From positions 554,303-618,302 of the forward strand of contig CP011215.1 in assembly GCA_001029775.1 (NCBI GenBank): 64,000 bases of DNA. Direction: 5' to 3'. The position numbers were made by a program, and so were the translations under genes. The notes under the pieces were generated by a model that worked only from the letters and a program-made list of their open reading frames with translations, made no database searches and was not told where the DNA came from. This DNA is from Candidatus Campbellbacteria bacterium GW2011_OD1_34_28. Lineage in GTDB: Bacteria; Patescibacteriota; Minisyncoccia; Phycocordibacterales; UBA12079. How positions within the stretch are numbered: the stretch's first letter is position 1; every line of letters starts with the position of its first letter. Below, one piece after another: positions 1 to 62,064 of this stretch.

Positions 1-32
1 TTCTTTTGAACGAGATGATGTGTTGTAAATGT

Positions 33-947
33 TTATAGCCATTTTTTGTATTTAAAGAAAATAAAGAACGAGGTCGCTAATGCAAGCATTATTCCAATTA
101 CTATCCAAAAATCATTTTCTGTTCCGATTATTGGCATACTAGTAGCATTCATTCCAAAAATTGCCGCTACCAAAGAAAGCGGAAAAGTAACAAACGCCAT
201 AATGGTTAGTGTTTTTATTGTTTCGTTTTCTTTCGTTGAAAGCAAAGAATTATTTGTTTCTCTTAATTCGTTTAGAGATTCTTTGTTTACTTCAATATTG
301 TGTCTGATTCTTTTATATTCGCCCAATATTGTATCAATTTGTTTATAAAAATCTTTTCCAAACATTCCAGATCCAACCTCTTTCAAAGATTCCAGTGTTT
401 CTTTGTGAGGGTTAGTAGCTTGTTTAGCATTCAAAAGGTCTCTTCCTAAAAAAGAAAGTTCTTTGACCATATTTTTTTCGTCACCTTGAAAAATTCTTTC
501 CTCCACATTTTCTAAAGCGTCTTGAATATACTCCAATTCGTGATTGATAGACTTGTAAAGTTTTTTAACAAGCAGAAAGAAAACATGTTCTGCATTGTTG
601 TTTTTTTCTTTTTTTTCTAGTATCGAATTTACTTCAAATTCTTTTGAAAATTTATGAATTGGATCTATTGTGTCGTATCTTGATGTAATCAAAAAATCTT
701 TTCCAATAACAAAATCTACTTCTTGATTTTCTTCGTATGAATGAGTGTGTCTAAAAGCAGGGAAGTGAAGAATGAGATAAACAAAGTTTTTGTGCAACTC
801 CACCATTGGTTTGAATGTTGGTGTAATAAGGTCGTTTGCAACGCTGGGGTGAATATCAAATTCTTCCATTACCGTGCGAATTTCTTCGGGAGTAGGTTGG
901 AATAGATCAATCCATGTTGTTTCGTTAGAAGTATATCTTTTTAACAT
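33..947 (-). CDS. corA: Magnesium/cobalt transporter CorA
   Basis: 304 aa. C-terminal two TM segments with the GMN motif (GMNATSMP), typical of the CorA family. Confidence 0.8.
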   Translation of the reverse strand: MLKRYTSNETTWIDLFQPTPEEIRTVMEEFDIHPSVANDLITPTFKPMVELHKNFVYLILHFPAFRHTHSYEENQEVDFVIGKDFLITSRYDTIDPIHKFSKEFEVNSILEKKEKNNNAEHVFFLLVKKLYKSINHELEYIQDALENVEERIFQGDEKNMVKELSFLGRDLLNAKQATNPHKETLESLKEVGSGMFGKDFYKQIDTILGEYKRIRHNIEVNKESLNELRETNNSLLSTKENETIKTLTIMAFVTFPLSLVAAIFGMNATSMPIIGTENDFWIVIGIMLALATSFFIFFKYKKWL

Positions 948-1023
948 TTTGAGATTCTGCTTTGGGCAGTTTTATTATAAATAATACTTAAATTTTAACC
1001 TATATTTCATTTTTTTAAACCTA

Positions 1024-1053
1024 TTGACAAAGATATCGTTTTGTGAGATATTA
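1024..1053 (+). promoter_or_regulatory. sigma70-like promoter (TTGACA, about 17-18 nt spacer, ATATTA) for GC-rich cassette at 1098; near-identical to promoter at 4212-4240
   Basis: ttgacaaagatatcgttttgtgagatatta is shared with ttgacaaagatttgttttgtggtaatatt upstream of 4287. RBS ggagg precedes the ATG at 1098. Confidence 0.4.
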
Positions 1054-1097
1054 TTAGACAGGATTTTTCACATTAATTCATTTTTACGGAGGTTCCC

Positions 1098-1322
1098 ATG
1101 AATACTTTTGAAAAGATGGTTTCGGTTGCGTGTATTTTTTTGTTCATCTTGACGATTGTCATGGTGAACAATGGTGTTCACAAGAACAACGAGGCCGTGG
1201 CGGACGAGTTGACTGGCTGTGCCTACTACGATTCGTCGGCGAAGGGCACGGGGTTTACCCAGTGCTCCAACAACAACCCCAGCCCGTCGCTGGTGGCGGG
1301 TGTGACAGGAGGTGTACGATGA
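1098..1322 (+). CDS. small secreted Cys-containing protein (GC-rich cargo gene)
   Basis: 74 aa. RBS ggagg plus ATG. N-terminal hydrophobic signal/TM segment. G+C-rich relative to flanks. Its stop overlaps the next start (ATGA). Confidence 0.5.
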   Translation: MNTFEKMVSVACIFLFILTIVMVNNGVHKNNEAVADELTGCAYYDSSAKGTGFTQCSNNNPSPSLVAGVTGGVR

Positions 1323-1483
1323 ACCGGAAACAGCGCAGGGCGATCGCCAAGACTGTCAACGTCTCCAACTCTATTCCCCGCGCCCCGTGGTATGTTCGCG
1401 GACCGGCACGACTGATGGTTGCTGTCGGAGCACTTAGCGGGCTGATCATGTTCTTTTATATTGCAGCAGAATTGCTCCCGTAG
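1319..1483 (+). CDS. small membrane protein (GC-rich cargo, translationally coupled)
   Basis: 54 aa. ATG at 1319 overlaps the TGA of the upstream ORF, with aggagg 7 nt upstream. C-terminal TM helix. Same frame as track ORF 1130..1483. Confidence 0.45.
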   Translation: MNRKQRRAIAKTVNVSNSIPRAPWYVRGPARLMVAVGALSGLIMFFYIAAELLP

Positions 1484-1500
1484 TGGGGCGAGAGCGAAGA

Positions 1501-1542
1501 GGGTGAGAAGTTTCTTTCAGAAACTTCTCACCCTCTTTTTTA
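1501..1542 (+). terminator. rho-independent terminator
   Basis: gggtgagaagtttc/gaaacttctcaccc hairpin followed by a T-run. Confidence 0.6.
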
Positions 1543-1696
1543 TTTTTCACTATTTAATTTCTTATTTAACAATTAAGATATAAAAAAATTTTTGACTACA
1601 AATCATACGACCGGAAGTTTAAGATTGTTTGTTTGTTATTCTTTTGAATATATTGTTTATAAAAATATTATCTCTATGATATAATTCTTTGCATAT

Positions 1697-2914
1697 ATGA
1701 GTAAAAATTTATCATTGAAAAAAATTGTTCCAGTTATTGTTATCGTTTTTTTGATTACCTCAACTTTTGGTATTGGTTTTTATTTTGGGAAAAATCAAAA
1801 AAAAGGTGTCGAAGCCATAGATAATGTTATTAACAAAGAAGATACTTTGAATACAACAAAAGCCGACTTTAGTGATTTTTGGAGAGCGTGGAATATTTTG
1901 AATGAAAAATATGTTTCTCCTGACGAAATAACAGATCAAGACAAAGTATGGAGTGCTATTCAAGGGCTTGCTTCTTCATACAAAGACCCCTATACAGTTT
2001 TTATGCCACCTGCTGAAAGCGAGATGTTTAACGACGATATACAAGGTTCATTTAGTGGTGTTGGTATGGAAATCGGAATAAGAGACGGAATCATTACTGT
2101 TGTCTCTCCCTTAAAAAATACTCCCGCAGAAAAAGCTGGGATAAAACCAGGAGACAAAATTATAAAAATTGACGAAGAAATAACCTCAAATTTTAATACA
2201 GACCAAGCGGTAAAACTTATTAGAGGAGAAAAGGGAACTGCCGTTAAACTGACAATTTCAAGAGAGGGAGTTGCTGATCTGATAGAGATTTCAGTTATTA
2301 GAGACAATATAAATATTCCAACTATTGATACAGAAAAAAGAGGAGATGTTTTTATAATCAGTTTATACAATTTTTCTGCCACATCACCAAATTTGTTTAA
2401 AGATGCTTTGAGAGAATTCGTAGAATCAAAAACAAATAAATTGGTTTTGGATCTGAGAGGAAACCCAGGAGGATATCTAGAGGCTTCGGTAGATATGGCA
2501 AGTTGGTTTTTACCAGCAGGTAAAGTAATCGTGACAGAAGATTACGGTGCCAATGAAGAAGACAAGGTCCATAGAAGCAAAGGATATAATATCTTTAATA
2601 ATAATCTTAAATTTGTTATACTGGTCAACGGCGGTTCGGCCTCTGCATCTGAAATATTAGCGGGTGCATTAAAAGAACATGGAATTGCTAAAATTGTAGG
2701 AACGAAGACTTTTGGGAAAGGTTCTGTTCAAGAATTGATCAATTTGACACCTGATACATCTTTAAAGATAACAGTGGCAAAATGGCTTACTCCAAATGGA
2801 AACTCAATCTCAAATAATGGTTTAGAGCCAGATGTAAATGTCGAGATTACTCAAGAACAGTTTGAAGATGGTTTGGATCCTCAGTTGGATAAGGCAATAG
2901 AATTACTAAGATAA
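1697..2914 (+). CDS. ctpA: C-terminal processing peptidase (S41 family, PDZ domain)
   Basis: 405 aa. N-terminal TM anchor, PDZ region (GMEIGIRDGIITVVSPLKNTPAEKAGIKPGDKI) and S41 core (GGSASASEILAGALKE...GTKTFGKGSVQ). Confidence 0.8.
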   Translation: MSKNLSLKKIVPVIVIVFLITSTFGIGFYFGKNQKKGVEAIDNVINKEDTLNTTKADFSDFWRAWNILNEKYVSPDEITDQDKVWSAIQGLASSYKDPYTVFMPPAESEMFNDDIQGSFSGVGMEIGIRDGIITVVSPLKNTPAEKAGIKPGDKIIKIDEEITSNFNTDQAVKLIRGEKGTAVKLTISREGVADLIEISVIRDNINIPTIDTEKRGDVFIISLYNFSATSPNLFKDALREFVESKTNKLVLDLRGNPGGYLEASVDMASWFLPAGKVIVTEDYGANEEDKVHRSKGYNIFNNNLKFVILVNGGSASASEILAGALKEHGIAKIVGTKTFGKGSVQELINLTPDTSLKITVAKWLTPNGNSISNNGLEPDVNVEITQEQFEDGLDPQLDKAIELLR

Positions 2915-2928
2915 ATTACTAAAACACT

Positions 2929-3375
2929 ATGAAAGTTATATTATTGCAAAATGTTGCAAAGACAGGTAGAAAATATGAAGTAAAAGATGTTTCCGATGGG
3001 TATGCTTTGAATTTTTTAATTCCAAACAAATTGGCAAAAGTCGCAACGGTTAATGCTTTGAGAGAATTGGAATCAGAAAGATTGCAACATGAACAAAATC
3101 AAAAAACCAAAGAGGTAGACTTGATTGAAAGTATTGAAAAATTGAAAGACTCAAGAGTGAGTATTTCAGCAAAGATTAATGATGAGGGAAAATTGTTTGC
3201 TGGAATTGATAAAGGCGATATTATAGATGCAATCAAAGATCAAAAAGCGCTCGAGATAAATCCTGACAATCTTGTTTTGGATAAACCTATAAAAGAAGCA
3301 TCGGAACACAAGATAACCATAAAGGTTGGGAAAAAATCAGCCGAATTTATTTTGGATATTGTGCCCAGAGATTAA
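2929..3375 (+). CDS. rplI: 50S ribosomal protein L9
   Basis: 148 aa. MKVILLQNVAKTGRKYEVKDVSDGYALNFLIP matches the L9 N-terminal domain. Confidence 0.85.
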   Translation: MKVILLQNVAKTGRKYEVKDVSDGYALNFLIPNKLAKVATVNALRELESERLQHEQNQKTKEVDLIESIEKLKDSRVSISAKINDEGKLFAGIDKGDIIDAIKDQKALEINPDNLVLDKPIKEASEHKITIKVGKKSAEFILDIVPRD

Positions 3376-3384
3376 ATATATAAA

Positions 3385-3420
3385 AATAAAAGTCCTCGCA
3401 ATTGCGAGGACTTTTATTTT
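3385..3420. terminator. bidirectional hairpin terminator between rplI and rpmA
   Basis: agtcctcgcaattgcgaggact is a perfect hairpin flanked by A/T runs. Confidence 0.6.
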
Positions 3421-3692
3421 TAGATGATGTTTACAACTTTTCTTTGTTTTTTTGTTCCGTCAAAATTTTCTTTTCTCTTTGATGTAAATTTTACTTTTCC
3501 TTCTTTAAGAGCAAACAGTGTGTGATCTTTTCCTACTCCTACATTTTTTCCTGCCAATATTTTTGTTCCTCTTTGGCGAACCAAAATAGAACCTGTTTTT
3601 GCAGCTTCTCCGTCGTAAAGTTTTGTTCCTAGATATTTAGGATTTGAATCTGTTAGATTTTTTGCCGATCCTCCGGCTTTCTTATGTGCCAT
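3420..3692 (-). CDS. rpmA: 50S ribosomal protein L27
   Basis: 90 aa. [29 protein letters not shown]...[11 protein letters not shown] is the L27 signature. Confidence 0.85.
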
Positions 3693-3748
3693 AGTGTTAG
3701 TTTATAGTTATTAGTTTTTAGTTGTTAGTACTGTATAATAAATACAAT

Positions 3749-4108
3749 ATGAGAGAAAGTATAAGACATTTGGTTAATAAAATCAAGTTAATAAGGGACT
3801 TTATTAACAAGGATGATGTTTTTGTGGTTTTGATAATAATTTTTGCTACATCGGCCTCCTTTGGATTAGGCAGAATATCTTCATTTGAAGAAAATAAAGA
3901 TCCTTTGCAGATTGCATCTGCTAATTTGGTACCTGAAAATTATGAGATAAAAGGGAACTATGTGGCGTCAAAAAATGGTACAAAATATCACCTCCCGTGG
4001 TGTTCTGGAGCTCAAACAATAAATGATGCTAATAAAATTTGGTTTGATACAAAAGATGAGGCAGAAAGTAGGGGATATACACCAGCTAAAAATTGTAAGG
4101 GACTATAG
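3749..4108 (+). CDS. membrane-anchored protein with C-terminal Ada-like metal-binding-type motif
   Basis: Likely start at MRESIRH (ATG 3749), with a TM helix. The C-terminal YHLPWC...FDTKDEAESRGYTPAKNC resembles the FY..EA..AGFRPCKRC pattern of the Ada N-terminal domain. Recalled from memory, not searched. Confidence 0.45.
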   Translation: MRESIRHLVNKIKLIRDFINKDDVFVVLIIIFATSASFGLGRISSFEENKDPLQIASANLVPENYEIKGNYVASKNGTKYHLPWCSGAQTINDANKIWFDTKDEAESRGYTPAKNCKGL

Positions 4109-4204
4109 TCCCTTACAATTTTTAGCTAAAATTATAAATTATAATTTTAGCTGAAATTATAAATTATAAATTTTTAAACAAACAAATTTCTTGAAATAAA
4201 CATC

Positions 4205-4240
4205 TTGACAGTTGACAAAGATTTGTTTTGTGGTAATATT
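4205..4240 (+). promoter_or_regulatory. sigma70-like promoter (tandem TTGACA boxes, TAATAT -10) for GC-rich gene 4287
   Basis: ttgacagttgacaaagatttgttttgtggtaatatt. RBS aggagg precedes the ATG at 4287. Related to the promoter at 1024. Confidence 0.4.
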
Positions 4241-4286
4241 TTATCTAGAAACTTTCTCTTTTTAATCTTTTTGAACAGGAGGTGTT

Positions 4287-4853
4287 ATGGCACAGCGTCT
4301 GGTTGCACTTACTGAACTCGGTCAGATTCTCAATCCGCTTTACGATAGCGTCACCCCGAGGATGATGGCATCGGATGATGGGGAGCTCGGTTTTACCGAG
4401 GAGGATTTCCCTGGGCGTCGGGCGGATATGTACATCGTTTGCCACCCCGACAATTCACCGTCAGGATGTTCCGGAGATTTTTTCTCGGCAGATATCCAGC
4501 ATGATATTTTCCCAGACGGGTTCGAGGACGATGGCGAGCTTATTTTTGCCAACGACGAGCACATCTTTCCCGACGAGCAGGCAATGTGTGATCCGGCTTA
4601 CGCCGAGGCGTGGACGCAGTTTGTTGCCGAAAAAGGTGTCAGCTTCACCAATCGGTGGATGAGGACGGAGGACAATGAGACTACCGCCAAATCCCCGACG
4701 AGCCAGCGTCAGCAGGAAAAGATTCTGATTCCGCCGGATTCCGAAAGGTCCTGTCGGAGTCACGGTCGTCGCGGTCGTCGGCACGTCCCGACGATTCCCG
4801 AAAGGATTCGTCACCACAACAAGACGCTTAGCGTCTTGGCACCAGCGGAGTAG
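4287..4853 (+). CDS. acidic Asp/Glu/Phe-rich hypothetical protein (GC-rich cargo)
   Basis: 188 aa. RBS caggaggtgttATG. Strongly G+C-rich, and several overlapping ORFs in other frames are artefacts of that. Hairpin terminator follows. Confidence 0.5.
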   Translation: MAQRLVALTELGQILNPLYDSVTPRMMASDDGELGFTEEDFPGRRADMYIVCHPDNSPSGCSGDFFSADIQHDIFPDGFEDDGELIFANDEHIFPDEQAMCDPAYAEAWTQFVAEKGVSFTNRWMRTEDNETTAKSPTSQRQQEKILIPPDSERSCRSHGRRGRRHVPTIPERIRHHNKTLSVLAPAE

Positions 4854-4861
4854 CAAACTCC

Positions 4862-4895
4862 GCAAAAGAGGCCCCGTAAGGCCTCTTTTTTATTT
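4862..4895 (+). terminator. rho-independent terminator
   Basis: aaagaggccccgtaaggcctctttttt. Confidence 0.6.
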
Positions 4896-4960
4896 TCTCT
4901 CTTGCTACGAAAGCTATTTTTGTGGTAGAGTAAAAATGTTAGAAAATAACTTTAAATACT

Positions 4961-5158
4961 ATGAACAAGATTAAAAAAATGCATCTGTCAAAAACAGACA
5001 AGAAAATAGGCGGAGTTTGTGGTGGAATAGGGGAGACTTTTGAAATTGATTCAACAATAATAAGATTAATTTTTATTTTCCTCGCTTTGGTAACAGAAAT
5101 TATTCCTGCTATCATCATCTACATATTGGCTTGGCTTATTATTCCTAGCAAAATATAA
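4961..5158 (+). CDS. PspC-domain membrane protein
   Basis: 65 aa. KIGGVCGGIGETFEIDSTIIRLIFIFLAL followed by a TM helix is the phage-shock-protein-C domain pattern. Confidence 0.65.
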   Translation: MNKIKKMHLSKTDKKIGGVCGGIGETFEIDSTIIRLIFIFLALVTEIIPAIIIYILAWLIIPSKI

Positions 5159-5261
5159 ATTAAAAAAATAAGAGCAAAAATTTGCTCTTATTTTTTTTAT
5201 CCTTATAATTGTTTGTAGAGAAGTAATTCACTAAATAAAAATCAGAAAAGGGACATTTATT

Positions 5262-5537
5262 ATGAGCATGGGAAATATTTTCTTTTTGTTTGTTGCAATC
5301 CAAGATAAAAATCTACTTCCCAAAGTAATGGAAGAAGTAAGCGATTGGGGAGGAGTTAGGGTTGTTGAAACTCACAGACTCGCGGATACAATTATCACTG
5401 ATAACATTAAAAATGACTGGTTTGTGACTCAGGGGGTTAAACAAGTTGTTTTAGTAAATATTCCAGAAGAAGAATATAAAAAGACGGTTAATAAGTGGTC
5501 CCAATGGACTAATATTCATTCTTTAAATTTTATTTAA
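5262..5537 (+). CDS. hypothetical protein
   Basis: 91-aa ORF with backbone AT-rich composition. No recognisable motif. Confidence 0.3.
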   Translation: MSMGNIFFLFVAIQDKNLLPKVMEEVSDWGGVRVVETHRLADTIITDNIKNDWFVTQGVKQVVLVNIPEEEYKKTVNKWSQWTNIHSLNFI

Positions 5538-5602
5538 GAAGTGCCTGAAAAGGCACTTCTTTTTATATTTTTTTAAATGGAAATGATATAATAGTTTTTA
5601 AT

Positions 5603-6190
5603 ATGAAAGATTTGCAAAATATTTTAAAATTTACAAAATTACTTAATGAATTTCGTAAAATTGAAAGAATGAACCTTTCAAGCAGGGGAGATAGAAAAGA
5701 AAATGATGCTGAACATAGTTATCAACTAGCTATGCTTGGTTGGTATATTTCAACAACACAAAAAATGGATTTAGATTTTAACTTGGTTATTAAATATTCT
5801 TTGATTCATGATTTGGTCGAAATTTATGCAGGGGATACCTATGTTTACACCAAAAATATTGATCTTAAAAACAGTCAAAAAGAAAGAGAATTTTCATCTT
5901 TAGAAAGATTAAAATCTGAATTTGGAGAAATCTCGGATATTTTTGACCTTATAGAGGAATATGAGAAAAGAGAAAATAAGGAATCGAAATTTGTGTATGC
6001 GTTAGATAAGGTTGAACCAATGATAAGTAATTATCTTCACAGAGGTAAGGTTTGGAAAGAAAATAATATTAAACTGGAAAATATAATAAATCATAAAATA
6101 AATAAAGTAAGTGAGGATAAAGAAGTAGAAAGGATCTTTAAAAAATTGATTGAGCTTATGAGGAAAGAGGAAAAAGATTTGTTTAATTAA
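5603..6190 (+). CDS. HD-domain phosphohydrolase (YfbR/5'-deoxynucleotidase-like)
   Basis: 195 aa. DAEHSYQLAMLGWYI...IHDLVEIYAGD shows the H..HD..D metal ligand pattern. Confidence 0.65.
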   Translation: MKDLQNILKFTKLLNEFRKIERMNLSSRGDRKENDAEHSYQLAMLGWYISTTQKMDLDFNLVIKYSLIHDLVEIYAGDTYVYTKNIDLKNSQKEREFSSLERLKSEFGEISDIFDLIEEYEKRENKESKFVYALDKVEPMISNYLHRGKVWKENNIKLENIINHKINKVSEDKEVERIFKKLIELMRKEEKDLFN

Positions 6191-6352
6191 ATAGAGGTAT
6201 GCTGGTACCTCTATTTGTAGGGAGAAGGCCTAAAAGGCCCTGTTTATTTATTATTGCAGTGTCGCACAATATACCTTTTGCGACATTGAATAATCAAAAT
6301 AAAGCCCCCTCTTTATATATTTATAGTGTTCGAGAGGAGGCTTTTTATTGTA

Positions 6353-6697
6353 TTAGTTAACTAAATCAAAAAATATTTCTGCTTCTTCCTTTTGTGAAAT
6401 ACTTGAGAAAAGATAAGCTTGTTTATTTTTCATTGCTGTATCTATTTTATTGTATTTTTCTGTTCCTTCACAATATTTTAATACTTCAACAAAACTAAAA
6501 TCTTTTTCCAAGTACTGAATATACAAATTGGTCGAGTTTCTACTTTTTGCTTCAAAAACGTCCACAGTTGAGTCAATTTTGACCACAAGGATATAACAGC
6601 CGTTCTTTGAGTAGTTTGCTAACGCTTTTTCCTGATTGATAGTTAGAAATGTAATAAATACTAAACCTAAAAAGATTGCTACATTTTTCATCTGCAT
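6353..6697 (-). CDS. secreted hypothetical protein
   Basis: 114 aa with an N-terminal signal peptide (MKNVAIFLGLVFITFLTINQEKALA). Confidence 0.4.
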   Translation of the reverse strand: MQMKNVAIFLGLVFITFLTINQEKALANYSKNGCYILVVKIDSTVDVFEAKSRNSTNLYIQYLEKDFSFVEVLKYCEGTEKYNKIDTAMKNKQAYLFSSISQKEEAEIFFDLVN

Positions 6698-6869
6698 TTC
6701 CCTCTTTCAAAATTTTAAAATAGATATAAGGCAAATTTCTAAAGTTTACATTAGCATCTTTTGTTTAAAAAAGAAACAGTTTTAATTTTTTAAGAACCAA
6801 CAGTCAAAAACCACAAAATTATGACAAAGATAGATAATATTATAACTAGTAGATGATCCCACATATTAT

Positions 6870-7178
6870 TTATTGAATATTTACACTAGGAGCCATTTCT
6901 TGAATTGTTGTTGGATCCCCTGCTTTTATTCTTTCCATATTTTCAACAAAGCTACTCCAAAGCAAATCTATAAAAATATCATTCCAAAAATATAATACAG
7001 GGCCGGCTAGATATGTATTCCAGAAATTGGTGACCAACCCCCAAGCATAACCCAGGTTTTCTTGTGTCTGCGGTGCCTCTACAATACCTCTCAAATTGAA
7101 TCCAAAGTAACTTAATATAATAATACCGATTATAATAACCAAGACTAATTGCAAAAATCCAGAATTTTTATTTATCAT
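6870..7178 (-). CDS. small membrane hypothetical protein
   Basis: 102 aa. One TM helix after the N-terminus. Confidence 0.4.
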   Translation of the reverse strand: MINKNSGFLQLVLVIIIGIIILSYFGFNLRGIVEAPQTQENLGYAWGLVTNFWNTYLAGPVLYFWNDIFIDLLWSSFVENMERIKAGDPTTIQEMAPSVNIQ

Positions 7179-7240
7179 AAATTAAATTATACTATTAAAA
7201 ATAAACTTTAAAAACAAGATTATTAACAGCAATCTTTGGT

Positions 7241-8536
7241 TTAGTATTTTGGTAGATAAGACATTGGATTTAAGTAAGCATCGCGAGAAGCCAAAGGAAT
7301 ATATTTGTCTTTGCAATTTATACTATTTTCAAATTTTGTAATCTGAACTCCTTTGCTAGCATAAACACCAAAGTGAAGATGCGGTCCTGTTGAATATCCT
7401 GTGTTACCGCTGTAACCGATTATGTCGCCGGCGTTAACACTTTGACCAGGATTTACTTTTATTAAAGAAAGGTGGGCATACAAAGTAGATAATCCATTTG
7501 GGTGCTCTACAAGAACCCATTTTCCATAGGAATAACACTTTGGAGGTACAGAATCTGTATTTCCTGTTCCTTTGACGACACCCTCCATGGCAGAGAGTAC
7601 TTTTGTACCAGAAGATGCTCTAAAATCGATTCCAGGGTGTCCGTTTCCGTTATAAACCTGAGGATTGCTAGTAGAAAAAGGAGTATTCCCAAAAAATTGA
7701 GTTATATAAATACTCTCTAACGGCCAACCCAAAATACCATAATTTGCATCTGGAAGACTGGTCGGGTCAATTTCTATTTTTAGTTGTGATTCCAATCTTT
7801 GGATTTCTTGAAGCACCTCTTCCATCAATTTCTTTTTTTCTTCCAATTGTTTTTTATAAAGAGATTCTTTATTTGCTGTAACCGAAAGAAGCTGGTCTTT
7901 TTCTTTTTTATTATAATCAATGATTTGTTTTTGATCGGCCAGCTGAGATTTATAATTTAATAATTCCCTTTCTTTCATTTCAGATTCTGTTTTAACTGTC
8001 TCCAGACTGCTTTTCAGCGTTACTAATTCATTAGTCTTTCTCCTTATGTCCATTTGTAATCTTTGGAGGCTGTCAAAGTCATCCCAAAATTCAGAAAGGT
8101 CTCTTTGAGAAAGCAAAATCTCAATAAGAGAGTTTGAGTCTTGTTCGTTTATTATTTTTACTATTTCGCCAAGCGCAGTATTGTTTTGATTAATTAATCT
8201 TTCTTTATCTCCAATATCAACTGACAATTTTTGAACAGTTAATCCTGTTGATTGAATTTTGTTGTCTGTTAGATTTATATCGGTAGATAGTTTTTTCCTA
8301 TCCAAGTTTAAGCGGTATATTTCGTTGTTTAGAGATTTTTTTTCTTCACTAACTTTATTTAATTCCTCTTGGTATTTTTTTATTTCTTTTTCCAAGTCTC
8401 CTATGCTAGATGATTTGGATTGAATTTGGTTTTTTATGTCGTCAATTATGGAAGCATTTATAAAGGACGGCTTTAACAAGCCTAACGAAAGTATTATAAA
8501 AAATAATATTAATAGTCTAAATTTGTCTTGAAACAT
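7241..8536 (-). CDS. M23-family peptidoglycan endopeptidase with N-terminal coiled coil (EnvC-like)
   Basis: 431 aa. Signal/TM, long coiled-coil region, and a C-terminal M23 domain (GHPGIDFRA...YAHLS...GYSGNTGYSTGPHLHFGVY). Confidence 0.75.
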   Translation of the reverse strand: MFQDKFRLLILFFIILSLGLLKPSFINASIIDDIKNQIQSKSSSIGDLEKEIKKYQEELNKVSEEKKSLNNEIYRLNLDRKKLSTDINLTDNKIQSTGLTVQKLSVDIGDKERLINQNNTALGEIVKIINEQDSNSLIEILLSQRDLSEFWDDFDSLQRLQMDIRRKTNELVTLKSSLETVKTESEMKERELLNYKSQLADQKQIIDYNKKEKDQLLSVTANKESLYKKQLEEKKKLMEEVLQEIQRLESQLKIEIDPTSLPDANYGILGWPLESIYITQFFGNTPFSTSNPQVYNGNGHPGIDFRASSGTKVLSAMEGVVKGTGNTDSVPPKCYSYGKWVLVEHPNGLSTLYAHLSLIKVNPGQSVNAGDIIGYSGNTGYSTGPHLHFGVYASKGVQITKFENSINCKDKYIPLASRDAYLNPMSYLPKY

Positions 8537-8537
8537 T

Positions 8538-9908
8538 TTATTTTAATTTATCTAAAGCTATTTTTAATCTTTCAATTGTTTTTTGTTTTCCCAAAATCTC
8601 CGACAATGTAAAAGGATCTGGCGACTTATCTTTTCCTGACAATGCAAATCTCATTGGCCAAAGGACATTTCCCCTACCCTTTTCTGTTGCATAATCCCAA
8701 AGAGATGTTTTTATCTCATCAGACTGAAAATTATCAATATTGTCAATAATTGAGATAATCTTGTTTAAATGTCCAATAGTTTCTTGTTTTTGGGCATCTT
8801 TCCAGAGTAAATTTTCTCCGTTATATTCTGGATTTTTAAAATAATATTCCAATTCCCCACCCTCAAACATTTCTTTCAAATCTGAAAATTTATTTATTCT
8901 TTCTTTTATAACGGGTAACATTTTTGTCAGAATTTCATCAGAATATTCTCTCATATCTTTTAATTTTTCAGGTAAAAATTCTAAAACTTTTTCTCTAAAA
9001 GATTGTTCCGACATTTTTTTGATATATTCTTTGTTAAACCAGTCCAATTTAACAAGGTCAAAAATTGCACCTCCTTTTTGTATTTTTGTTAAATCAAATT
9101 CCTCGATTAGTTCTCCAAGAGAAAAAATTTCTTTGTCTGTTCCAGGGTTCCACCCTAAAAGCATCAAATAGTTTATCATTGCTTCTGGCAAGTATCCCAT
9201 CTTTCTGTATTCACGAATAGAAACAGCTCCGTGTCTTTTTGAAAGTTTTGACCGATCTGGTGCCAAGCTAAAAGGCATGTGAGTATAAAATGGTCTTGGC
9301 GCATTGATTGCTTCTTGTATAAGAATTTGTCTTGGGGTATTTGATATTCCGTCTTCTCCTCGGATTATATGCGTCACACCCATTTCATAGTCATCAACAA
9401 CAACCGCTAGATGGTAAAGCGGTTCGGTTAAACTTTTTGCAATTACAAAGTCTCCTAGTTCGGTTGTATCAAATTCTATATCTCCTCTAACTGTATCTTT
9501 GAAGATAACTTTTTTATTTGGATTTTTAAATCTTATAACTTCTGTTCTATCACCTTCTTTTTCGGCAATTTCTTTTGATACATAGGCTGTACCATCGGCA
9601 ATCATTTTTTCCAAATATTTTCTATAAGTTTCTCCCCTCTCGGACTGTCTTACAATTTTTGTTTTGTCTATTTCTATTCCCAACCATTCCAAACTTTCCA
9701 ATATTTCATCTTCAAATTCTTTTTTAGATCTTTCTCTGTCTGTATCTTCTGATCTAAAGAGCATTTCACCTCCATTTTGTTTTGCGTAAATATAATTAAA
9801 CAAAGCTGTTCTGGCGCTTCCTACATGGAGATATCCTGTTGGCGACGGTGGAAAACGGGTTATTATTTTTTTGGTTTGTTCTGTCATGTTTCGTATATAT
9901 AATAACAA
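8538..9908 (-). CDS. gltX: glutamyl-tRNA synthetase
   Basis: 456 aa. Class I HIGH region (RFPPSPTGYLHVGSARTALFNY) and KMSKS-like LSKRHG. Confidence 0.85.
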   Translation of the reverse strand: MLLYIRNMTEQTKKIITRFPPSPTGYLHVGSARTALFNYIYAKQNGGEMLFRSEDTDRERSKKEFEDEILESLEWLGIEIDKTKIVRQSERGETYRKYLEKMIADGTAYVSKEIAEKEGDRTEVIRFKNPNKKVIFKDTVRGDIEFDTTELGDFVIAKSLTEPLYHLAVVVDDYEMGVTHIIRGEDGISNTPRQILIQEAINAPRPFYTHMPFSLAPDRSKLSKRHGAVSIREYRKMGYLPEAMINYLMLLGWNPGTDKEIFSLGELIEEFDLTKIQKGGAIFDLVKLDWFNKEYIKKMSEQSFREKVLEFLPEKLKDMREYSDEILTKMLPVIKERINKFSDLKEMFEGGELEYYFKNPEYNGENLLWKDAQKQETIGHLNKIISIIDNIDNFQSDEIKTSLWDYATEKGRGNVLWPMRFALSGKDKSPDPFTLSEILGKQKTIERLKIALDKLK

Positions 9909-19338: not shown

Positions 19339-19473
19339 GTTGTCTCCTCATTTGTTTTGCGGACATTTAAGTTTTTCAAAAATTTTTAGGCGTTTTTTTC
19401 AAAACACCCTTATTTCCTATTTGTAATATTAACATAATTAAGCAACATTGTCAATTTATATAATAAAAACAAC
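19339..19473 (-). promoter_or_regulatory. family-1 conserved promoter (TTGACA-17-TAATAT) plus about 85-nt conserved leader; copies at 25949-26078 and 29962-30093
   Basis: Three diverged copies (roughly 85-90 percent identical by eye) of ttgaca..tagtat/taatat..aggaaataagggtgttttgaaa..gcctaaaaa, each ending in RBS plus the ATG of a different ORF. Confidence 0.6.
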
Positions 19474-61754: not shown

Positions 61755-62064
61755 ATTGAGAATATTTTACCATAAAAATAATATTTAATTTATACCAAGG
61801 TTTAACTTTGATATAAAAAGGGCGGTGCTTGCGCACCGCCCTCAAACCTCAAAACCCAAGAGGTTTGTCAGCCCTTATTGGTCAGATCTGCTTCTCAAAA
61901 GCCTCCAATAAAATCACCTCCTTTTAGGTTGTCAGGTTATCCCATCAGATCGCCGTAACAATCGGACAGATCTTCAAGGGAAGTTCCCATCTTCTTCGTG
62001 GTCCTGAGAATCTTCAACCCGCGATTAATTTTTTCTCATTTCCGAATCCTCTAAGGGTGTTTCG

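Follow-up and report, generated by a model that had tools for sequence, protein, structure and literature searches.

Why should two small, GC-rich transcription units, dispersed among housekeeping genes of an AT-rich bacterial chromosome, carry related signals in front of unrelated genes, and what does their composition record? The question is raised by a stretch of 64,000 nucleotides from Candidatus Campbellbacteria bacterium GW2011_OD1_34_28 (contig CP011215.1, forward strand, positions 554,303 to 618,302), which we call the window and number from its first nucleotide, and which has a GC content of 33.7%. Unit 1 (1024-1546, plus strand) consists of a promoter, a leader, two open reading frames (ORFs) encoding the proteins p74 and p54, and a terminator. 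Unit 2 (4205-4897, plus strand) consists of a promoter, a leader, one ORF encoding p188, and a terminator. An initial annotation of this DNA had proposed a scaffold in which a common promoter drives exchangeable GC-rich cargo. On the evidence assembled here we consider it probable that these are two autonomous Campbellbacteria units with paralogous promoter-leader modules, and that their GC-richness is not the mark of recently acquired cargo.

Both promoters have the features of the sigma-70 extended -10 class, namely a TTGACA -35 hexamer, a spacer of 17 or 16 nucleotides and a TGn extension. The promoter of unit 1 (1024-1052) has its -35 hexamer at 1024-1029, the 17-nucleotide spacer AAGATATCGTTTTGTGA, TG at 1044-1045 and the -10 hexamer GATATT at 1047-1052. 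That of unit 2 (4205-4239) has tandem TTGACA hexamers at 4205-4210 and 4212-4217, the 16-nucleotide spacer AAGATTTGTTTTGTGG, TG at 4231-4232 and the -10 hexamer TAATAT at 4234-4239. In context the -10 elements read TGaGATATT and TGgTAATAT, each agreeing with TATAAT at four of six positions, and in a promoter scan of positions 1-7000 the combination of a perfect TTGACA with a TG-extended -10 occurred at these two sites only. The AT-rich leader of unit 1 (1053-1097) contains a Shine-Dalgarno (SD) sequence, GGAGG at 1088-1092, five nucleotides ahead of the ATG, whilst the leader of unit 2 (4240-4286) comprises the palindrome AGAAACTTTCT at 4247-4257, a T-rich tract and the SD sequence AGGAGG at 4277-4282.

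The genes that follow are p74 (1098-1322, plus strand, 74 residues), with 52% GC and a third-position GC content (GC3) of 0.68; p54 (1319-1483, plus strand, 54 residues), with 56% GC, its own AGGAGG and an ATGA overlap with p74; and p188 (4287-4853, plus strand, 188 residues), with 55% GC, GC3 of 0.61 and a third-position A content (A3) of 0.10. A consensus SD sequence lies four to five nucleotides ahead of each ATG. Both units close, 3' of the stop codon, with a hairpin and T run of the intrinsic (Rho-independent) kind. The terminator of unit 1 (1496-1546) has a 20-bp stem with eight GC pairs followed by TTTTATTTTT (1496-1538), and that of unit 2 (4864-4897) a 10-bp stem with five GC pairs (4864-4889), a six-nucleotide loop and TTATTTT. 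The promoters, ORFs and ribosome-binding sites all lie where the initial annotation had placed them, and the terminator scan recovered the hairpin it had described at the end of each unit. Since both units recur at identical loci in independent assemblies from NCBI, JGI, ENA and Logan they are not an assembly artefact.

Is the resemblance of the two promoter regions greater than strong promoters would display in general? A local alignment of 1024-1097 with 4212-4286 scores 37. Over 4,255 tiles taken from both strands of the window the mean score is 14.9 (standard deviation 2.7) and the best unrelated tile reaches 28, placing the module match at a z of about 8; none of 2000 shuffles attained 37. 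The assertion that the two regions align along their length is therefore sound. In 128 kb, both strands counted together, the closest real match of each module is the other module, with the qualification that a T-rich stretch near 38.3 kb outscores the match of unit 1 to unit 2 by one point. The resemblance continues through the non-consensus spacer (AAGAT..GTTTTGTG) into the leader and goes no further. Comparisons of the coding parts with blastn, tblastx and nhmmer gave no similarity, in keeping with the earlier description of unrelated GC-rich genes (52-56% GC against 33.7% for the window), and the terminators and 3' flanks are also unrelated, so that sharing is limited to the 5' module. An origin of unit 1 from the coding sequence of unit 2, by duplication or overprinting, was considered and rejected, as the same three programs returned nothing.

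An nhmmer profile built from both modules recovered no further copy, whether from the window or from 52 related loci (L001-L052), where matches were limited to orthologs of units 1 and 2, and the profile does not fit other strong promoters of the window. When JGI metagenomes were scanned for the exact pattern, 66 matches emerged; four were of Campbellbacteria type, all four of them orthologs of unit 1 or unit 2, and the remainder were chance or unrelated occurrences, for example inside a coding sequence, perhaps that of a transposase, recurring on many contigs. We therefore discarded the idea of a generic promoter of the organism, the profile and exact-pattern scans having produced no further copies. 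Within the approximately 73 kb of this genome covered by module scanning, the consensus was not found in front of many AT-rich housekeeping genes, as it would be were it the organism's ordinary strong promoter.

Orthologous loci are informative on the history of the module. The unit 1 promoter differs at no more than one position in L002 and L008. The unit 2 promoter is kept in L002, L006, L008 and L073 and is recognisable in L007, L120 and L121. A palindrome, AGAAAnTTTCT, located just 3' of the -10 hexamer, is invariant in the unit-2 leaders of the GC-rich subclade to which the window belongs (clade A) and recurs in the unit-1 leader of L076, which together with L062 represents one sister lineage. 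That L076 leader reads GCAGAAACTTTCTACTTTTAATCTTTTTTTGAGGAG and shares 75% identity with the unit-2 leader of the window as against 50% with the unit-1 leader of the window. Overall, the modules of unit 1 and unit 2 are 61-69% identical, and unit-1 orthologs are 64% identical. On these values the modules look homologous, not merely convergent, and the pattern suggests that they share ancestry or have evolved in concert. The similarity extends outside the core promoter elements and is kept in orthologs, as would be looked for in a small regulon.

The three ORFs have the character of real coding genes. In each the second codon position is the most conserved, followed by the first and then the third, and indels between orthologs preserve the reading frame. 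The ratio of non-synonymous to synonymous substitution rates (dN/dS) is 0.10-0.23 for p188, 0.17-0.26 for p74 and 0.07-0.17 for p54. For unit 1 the model with two ORFs is better than the single ORF of 117-120 residues offered by one pipeline, because both frames show coding conservation and either ATG is preceded by an AGGAGG-type site of its own; the ATGA overlap suggests that translation of p54 is coupled to that of p74. Hydropathy analysis places a transmembrane or signal-anchor segment at residues 7-25 of p74, ahead of a cysteine-containing C-terminal part, and a C-terminal transmembrane helix at residues 32-50 of p54, the N-terminus of which is basic. The first 130 residues of p188 are acidic (27 Asp or Glu against seven Lys or Arg) and the C-terminal tail is basic, rich in histidine and arginine. 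The protein is predicted to be mostly disordered, and an AlphaFold2 model has a mean predicted local distance difference test score of 44.6. Searches with these three proteins, and with two further products discussed below (p150 and p70), gave nothing meaningful in Pfam, PHROGs, PADLOC, NCBIfam or the sequences of the PDB. A crude test for a diversity-generating retroelement or reverse transcriptase, using the pattern Y[AVIM]DD on stop-free stretches of at least 150 residues, found none in the window. The orphan proteins are candidates for lineage-specific functions at the envelope or in interaction with a host.

How were the units inherited? Among 5.8 billion proteins the p188 family forms six clusters, and a profile run against 1.84 billion representatives recovered six of them; the family is confined to Campbellbacteria-like genomes. 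In every member that can be placed (L001-L008, L073 and L120-L122) p188 lies between the gene for an Ada-like protein and pspC, so that unit 2 is to be seen as a gene restricted to this lineage and inherited vertically. Only close orthologs of p74 and p54 were found. Four clade-A lineages have sequence over the site of unit 1 (the window, L002/L107, L008 and L076/L062) and the unit is present in all of them, its terminator being identical in L002. The genes that flank it, corA and the S41 C-terminal peptidase gene (ctp), lie side by side, with about 100-310 nucleotides between them, in L007 and in over 12 further species of Parcubacteria, so that unit 1 is an insertion specific to its clade, passed on at that position ever since. 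Recognisable as it is in the distant L007, L120 and L121, the unit-2 module appears the older and was most likely copied to unit 1. The p188 family itself is older than its extreme GC-richness.

These results divide the scaffold proposal. A 5' module is indeed common to both units; the terminators and 3' flanks have nothing to do with each other and both units occupy fixed, syntenic positions. The notion of exchangeable cargo fares badly, with unit 2 inherited vertically at one locus in all relatives found and unit 1 the outcome of one insertion, and with none of the three ORFs having a homolog in a donor, a mobile element or a virus. Searches of the same 5.8 billion proteins and 1.84 billion representatives for homologs of p188, p74 and p54 outside Campbellbacteria-like genomes found none, a scan of viral contigs with the p188 alignment gave no match, and neither did PHROGs.

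At one locus (L076, 7127-9463) the promoter and leader of unit 2 give way at about 7193 to 2.3 kb of unrelated sequence of about 55% GC, including an ORF of 490 residues which, by eye, we take to be ABC1/UbiB-kinase-like. We do not accept this as the same promoter with different cargo, as L062, from the same lineage, has p188 at that place. The L076 contig is probably chimeric, a real variant being the alternative.

The composition of the units requires separate consideration. GC islands extend over 1139-1522 (55.7% GC) and 4269-4915 (53.9%), and the GC boundaries coincide with start and stop codons. GC3 is 0.61-0.68 in the unit ORFs against 0.22-0.30 in neighbouring genes, and every codon position is shifted, with values of 0.60, 0.44 and 0.61 for positions one to three (GC1, GC2 and GC3). 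Codons ending in A are almost absent (A3 of 0.06-0.16 against 0.30-0.59 in neighbours). The effect reaches the amino acid composition, the proportion of arginine among basic residues, R/(K+R), being 0.67-0.82 in p188 of the window, L002 and L005, in p54 and in p150, as opposed to 0.12-0.31 in neighbours; p74 (0.25) and the L008 ortholog of p188 (0.50) are exceptions. Across the subclade the p188 gene has 54-55% GC in genomes of 32-35%, and the distant orthologs, at 38-45%, are still 8-13 percentage points above their own genomes. Since the adjoining ribosomal protein genes are AT-rich, the pattern is not the codon bias that high expression usually brings. A comparable feature was noticed in L012 (1477-1990), from a Zambryskiibacteria genome of 36.7% GC, where an ORF-shaped island of 54% GC is immediately preceded by a terminator and AT-rich sequence. 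Hence GC islands confined to ORFs may have a wider occurrence among Parcubacteria.

Is this composition kept up, or is it fading? Across the GC-rich lineages GC3 stays at 0.57-0.65 despite synonymous divergence (dS) of 0.9-3.7, above that of most neighbours. Third-position changes were polarised by parsimony in sets of three to five taxa. For AT>GC changes the rate was 0.186 among the GC-rich genes as against 0.068 among their neighbours (odds ratio 3.1, p=4e-8), with equal GC>AT rates, and the parsimony estimates of equilibrium GC3 are approximately 0.60 and 0.32, respectively. A second taxon set gave a weaker contrast (equilibrium GC3 of 0.50 against 0.37, odds ratio 1.7, p=0.02). Under the regime of the neighbours, a two-state decay would be expected to take GC3 from 0.62 to approximately 0.34-0.48. 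The combination of stable GC3, a raised AT>GC rate and an unchanged GC>AT rate argues against a recent, decaying transfer, and we conclude with moderate confidence that the GC composition is maintained and is not the fading trace of such an event.

The comparison of the window with L002 (positions 1-8600) reveals a mosaic of identity, with blocks at 100% around 2200-3500 and 6200-7700 and divergent blocks of 63-85% identity at 1300-1500, 3800-4900 and 5700-6200, which indicates that diverged lineages frequently undergo homologous recombination with each other. It is in the patches of greater divergence that the GC-rich genes are found. The patch at 5700-6200, over an AT-rich HD-domain gene, has no rise in GC, and hypermutation of the GC-rich genes only was rejected, given that the mosaic of divergence also strikes this AT-rich gene.

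Other explanations of these units must be set against the one we prefer. If the GC-rich segments were structured non-coding or dual-function RNAs the ORFs would be incidental. An island of GC in an AT-rich genome is classically read as structured RNA, and long antisense ORFs span both islands, but the order of conservation among codon positions, dN/dS values of 0.07-0.26, the frame-keeping indels and the consensus SD sequence before each ATG all contradict this, Rfam gave no match at gathering thresholds across the window, and the two transcripts fold with energies no different from those of shuffled sequences (z of -1.1 and -0.9). We give an RNA origin hardly any credence. Convergence is a somewhat more serious competitor. 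Independent near-consensus promoters and AU-rich leaders might have come to look alike with no common origin or regulation, and the -35, TG and -10 boxes are indeed generic, being common to the window promoters at 19454, 26058, 30073 and 40119 and to L119, whilst a strict 22-nucleotide pattern with three mismatches is weakly significant. That account does not extend to the likeness of the non-consensus spacer and the leader, to modules that are each other's closest real match when other strong promoters fail the profile, or to a unit-1 leader in L076 that is almost a unit-2 leader. We regard convergence as improbable.

The alternative of most consequence is that the genes are foreign, moron-like cargo from a donor of about 55% GC, be it host, phage or plasmid, recently captured behind a reusable native promoter. 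The values of GC1, GC2 and GC3 (approximately 0.60, 0.44 and 0.61), with low A3, are like those of an ordinary gene in a genome of about 55% GC, unit 1 sits as a clean insertion where relatives have two adjoining genes, each unit has its own promoter and terminator, and all three proteins are orphans. Against this stand the lack of any homolog outside Campbellbacteria-like genomes and of any match to viral contigs or PHROGs in the searches described; the synteny and age of unit 2, the promoter of which is present where the gene has only 38-45% GC; GC boundaries set exactly at start and stop codons; and GC3 that is unchanged at dS of about 1 or more, with AT>GC changes raised and no signature of amelioration. 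Recent capture is, in our judgement, unlikely. Several considerations also count against the explanation based on paralogous modules and maintained composition. Module scanning reached approximately 73 kb of the genome, so that more copies may exist, and the similarity of the modules could in part be convergence on optimal promoter or leader features. Parsimony on three to five taxa with saturated sites biases both gene classes toward 0.5, the effect size varies with the taxon set (equilibrium GC3 of 0.60 against 0.32, or 0.50 against 0.37), and as the window and L002 form a recombination mosaic some of the apparent substitutions may be imported alleles.

With respect to what might maintain the composition, candidate forces are selection on mRNA or DNA composition, GC-biased conversion linked to recombination, and a repair bias linked to transcription. 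One extension can be put forward only tentatively, since we think it has less than an even chance of being correct. The strongly promoted, stand-alone orphan genes of the subclade, at least p74/p54, p188 and the gene for the 150-residue protein p150, may be subject to a long-lasting, GC-enriching force confined to the ORF. Selection might favour mRNAs that are poor in A, resistant to nucleases or long-lived, or else repair or conversion linked to transcription or recombination might be GC-biased. If true, a compositionally distinct class of genes would exist inside an AT-rich minimal genome without horizontal transfer.

Returning to the explanation that we favour, the two promoters would be alike because their promoter-leader modules are paralogous. 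Each unit would be transcribed from a promoter of sigma-70 type, its -35 perfect and its -10 TG-extended, and would probably be strongly expressed, giving a transcript with an AU-rich leader of about 45 nucleotides and a near-consensus SD sequence that should stop at the intrinsic terminator. The products would be two translationally coupled small membrane proteins of 74 and 54 residues from unit 1 and, from unit 2, a protein of 188 residues predicted to be acidic and largely disordered with a basic tail. Unit 1 would have arisen in the ancestor of one subclade, inserted between corA and the S41 gene, and either took a copy of the unit-2 promoter-leader or was later homogenised with the unit-2 module. 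The two units are most likely co-expressed, the conserved spacer and the AGAAAnTTTCT palindrome being candidate sites for a common regulator, and their GC-richness, which at least two more stand-alone small genes of this genome also have, appears to be upheld by a raised rate of AT>GC fixation.

The surroundings of the units are those of a bacterial chromosome. Unit 1 lies between corA (33-947, minus strand) and ctp (1697-2914), which is followed by rplI (2929-3375), rpmA (3420-3692, minus strand) and the gene for a membrane-anchored protein with an Ada-Zn-like domain (3722-4108); beyond unit 2 are pspC (4961-5158) and the HD-domain gene (5603-6190). In L002, 3' of the unit-1 terminator, there are about 110 additional nucleotides, rich in inverted repeats (3270-3345, corresponding to about 1612 of the window, where they are absent), which may be a small hairpin-repeat indel.

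Do similar designs exist elsewhere in this genome? A polytopic membrane protein of 150 residues (p150), encoded at 63990-63556 on the minus strand and completed in L119 (9194-9790), has a gene with 55% GC, GC3 of 0.68 and A3 of 0.06. It is furnished with a perfect TTGACA-N17-TATAAT promoter, the spacer of which is unlike those of units 1 and 2, a leader hairpin, a strong SD sequence and a bidirectional terminator. A second unit (62330-61815, minus strand) contains an ORF of 70 residues (p70, 62277-62065, minus strand; 52% GC), very acidic and rich in histidine and with no family match, then approximately 250 nucleotides of moderately GC-rich sequence and a terminator near 61815-61845. A separate family has three copies on the minus strand at 19500-19030, 26105-25540 and 30125-29375. 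Its 5' module, approximately 165 nucleotides with 86% column identity, comprises a terminator hairpin, a promoter (TTGACA..TGTTAATAT) and a leader hairpin (GGGTGTTTTGAAAGAAACGCC); a 3' module of approximately 130 nucleotides and 92% identity is present in two of the three copies. These modules flank unrelated ORFs of 41-45% GC, and a search of Rfam with the family gave no match. From p150, p70 and the three-copy family we conclude that the genome reuses expression modules for small lineage-specific genes, which lends some general support to the scaffold idea.

Two further near-consensus extended -10 promoters on the minus strand, at 59746-59600 (TTGACT..TGTTACTAT) and 40119-39900 (TTGACA..TGGTAGCAT), are followed by GC-richer sequence. 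No obvious SD sequence or ORF was noticed by eye in the 70 nucleotides after either, and they are perhaps small RNA genes; Rfam gave no match at E<0.1 for these regions save one weak match at chance level.

Known systems provide points of comparison. Hendrix and colleagues are said to have described phage morons as autonomous promoter-gene-terminator units of deviant composition placed between conserved genes. Like these, units 1 and 2 each have a sigma-70-type promoter, an intrinsic terminator and a composition unlike that of the flanks. Insertion between genes adjacent in relatives holds for unit 1 but not for unit 2, found in every relative that has the locus. Unlike morons the units are in a bacterial chromosome, in the company of corA, ctp, rplI, rpmA and pspC, and viral scans were negative; furthermore, their deviant composition seems to be maintained and not a relic of transfer. 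The variable lipoprotein genes of Mycoplasma (vlp/vsp) have conserved 5' expression regions and divergent coding parts. The likeness is of a conserved promoter and leader before small proteins, unrelated or divergent and in part membrane-associated, of a bacterium that is reduced, rich in AT and dependent on a host. The units differ in that two members were found, conservation ends before the start codon, no signal peptide is shared, there are no phase-variable repeats or site-specific inversion, and the loci are dispersed and syntenic. With regard to an integron-like mobile gene cassette or a MITE-borne promoter, for which an attC site or terminal inverted repeats, a target-site duplication, an integrase and several copies would be expected, the observations are two copies of the module in the window and the loci scanned, unrelated 3' ends, and units dispersed among housekeeping genes.

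Ameliorating islets derived by horizontal gene transfer (HGT) resemble the units in having orphan genes and a local composition and codon usage far from those of the genome. Here, however, the GC-richness stops at the ends of the ORFs, there is no known donor, the relatives are all syntenic, and a rough parsimony estimate gives no signature of amelioration across saturated dS. GC-biased gene conversion in bacteria has reportedly been linked to recombination by Lassalle et al. (PMC4450053). The units are similar in that their GC-rich genes lie in divergent mosaic patches, with raised AT>GC fixation at all codon positions; we know of no description, for this process in bacteria, of a GC3 gap so large and confined to single ORFs. 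A literature search did not find the phenomenon described for the candidate phyla radiation (CPR) or for Campbellbacteria.

What, then, do the units signify? The sharing of a promoter is in itself ordinary biology, explicable by a duplicated or co-regulated promoter, though it does offer a way into the regulation of an uncultured CPR lineage without mapped promoters. The interest lies mainly in a GC-richness that is confined to ORFs and apparently maintained. Atypical GC content is routinely taken to mean horizontal transfer; in this case the ORF islands are syntenic, old and under purifying selection. If the pattern holds genome-wide it would be a caution for the detection of HGT in CPR genomes and would imply a force on nucleotide content specific to a class of genes, either selection on mRNA or biased repair or conversion.

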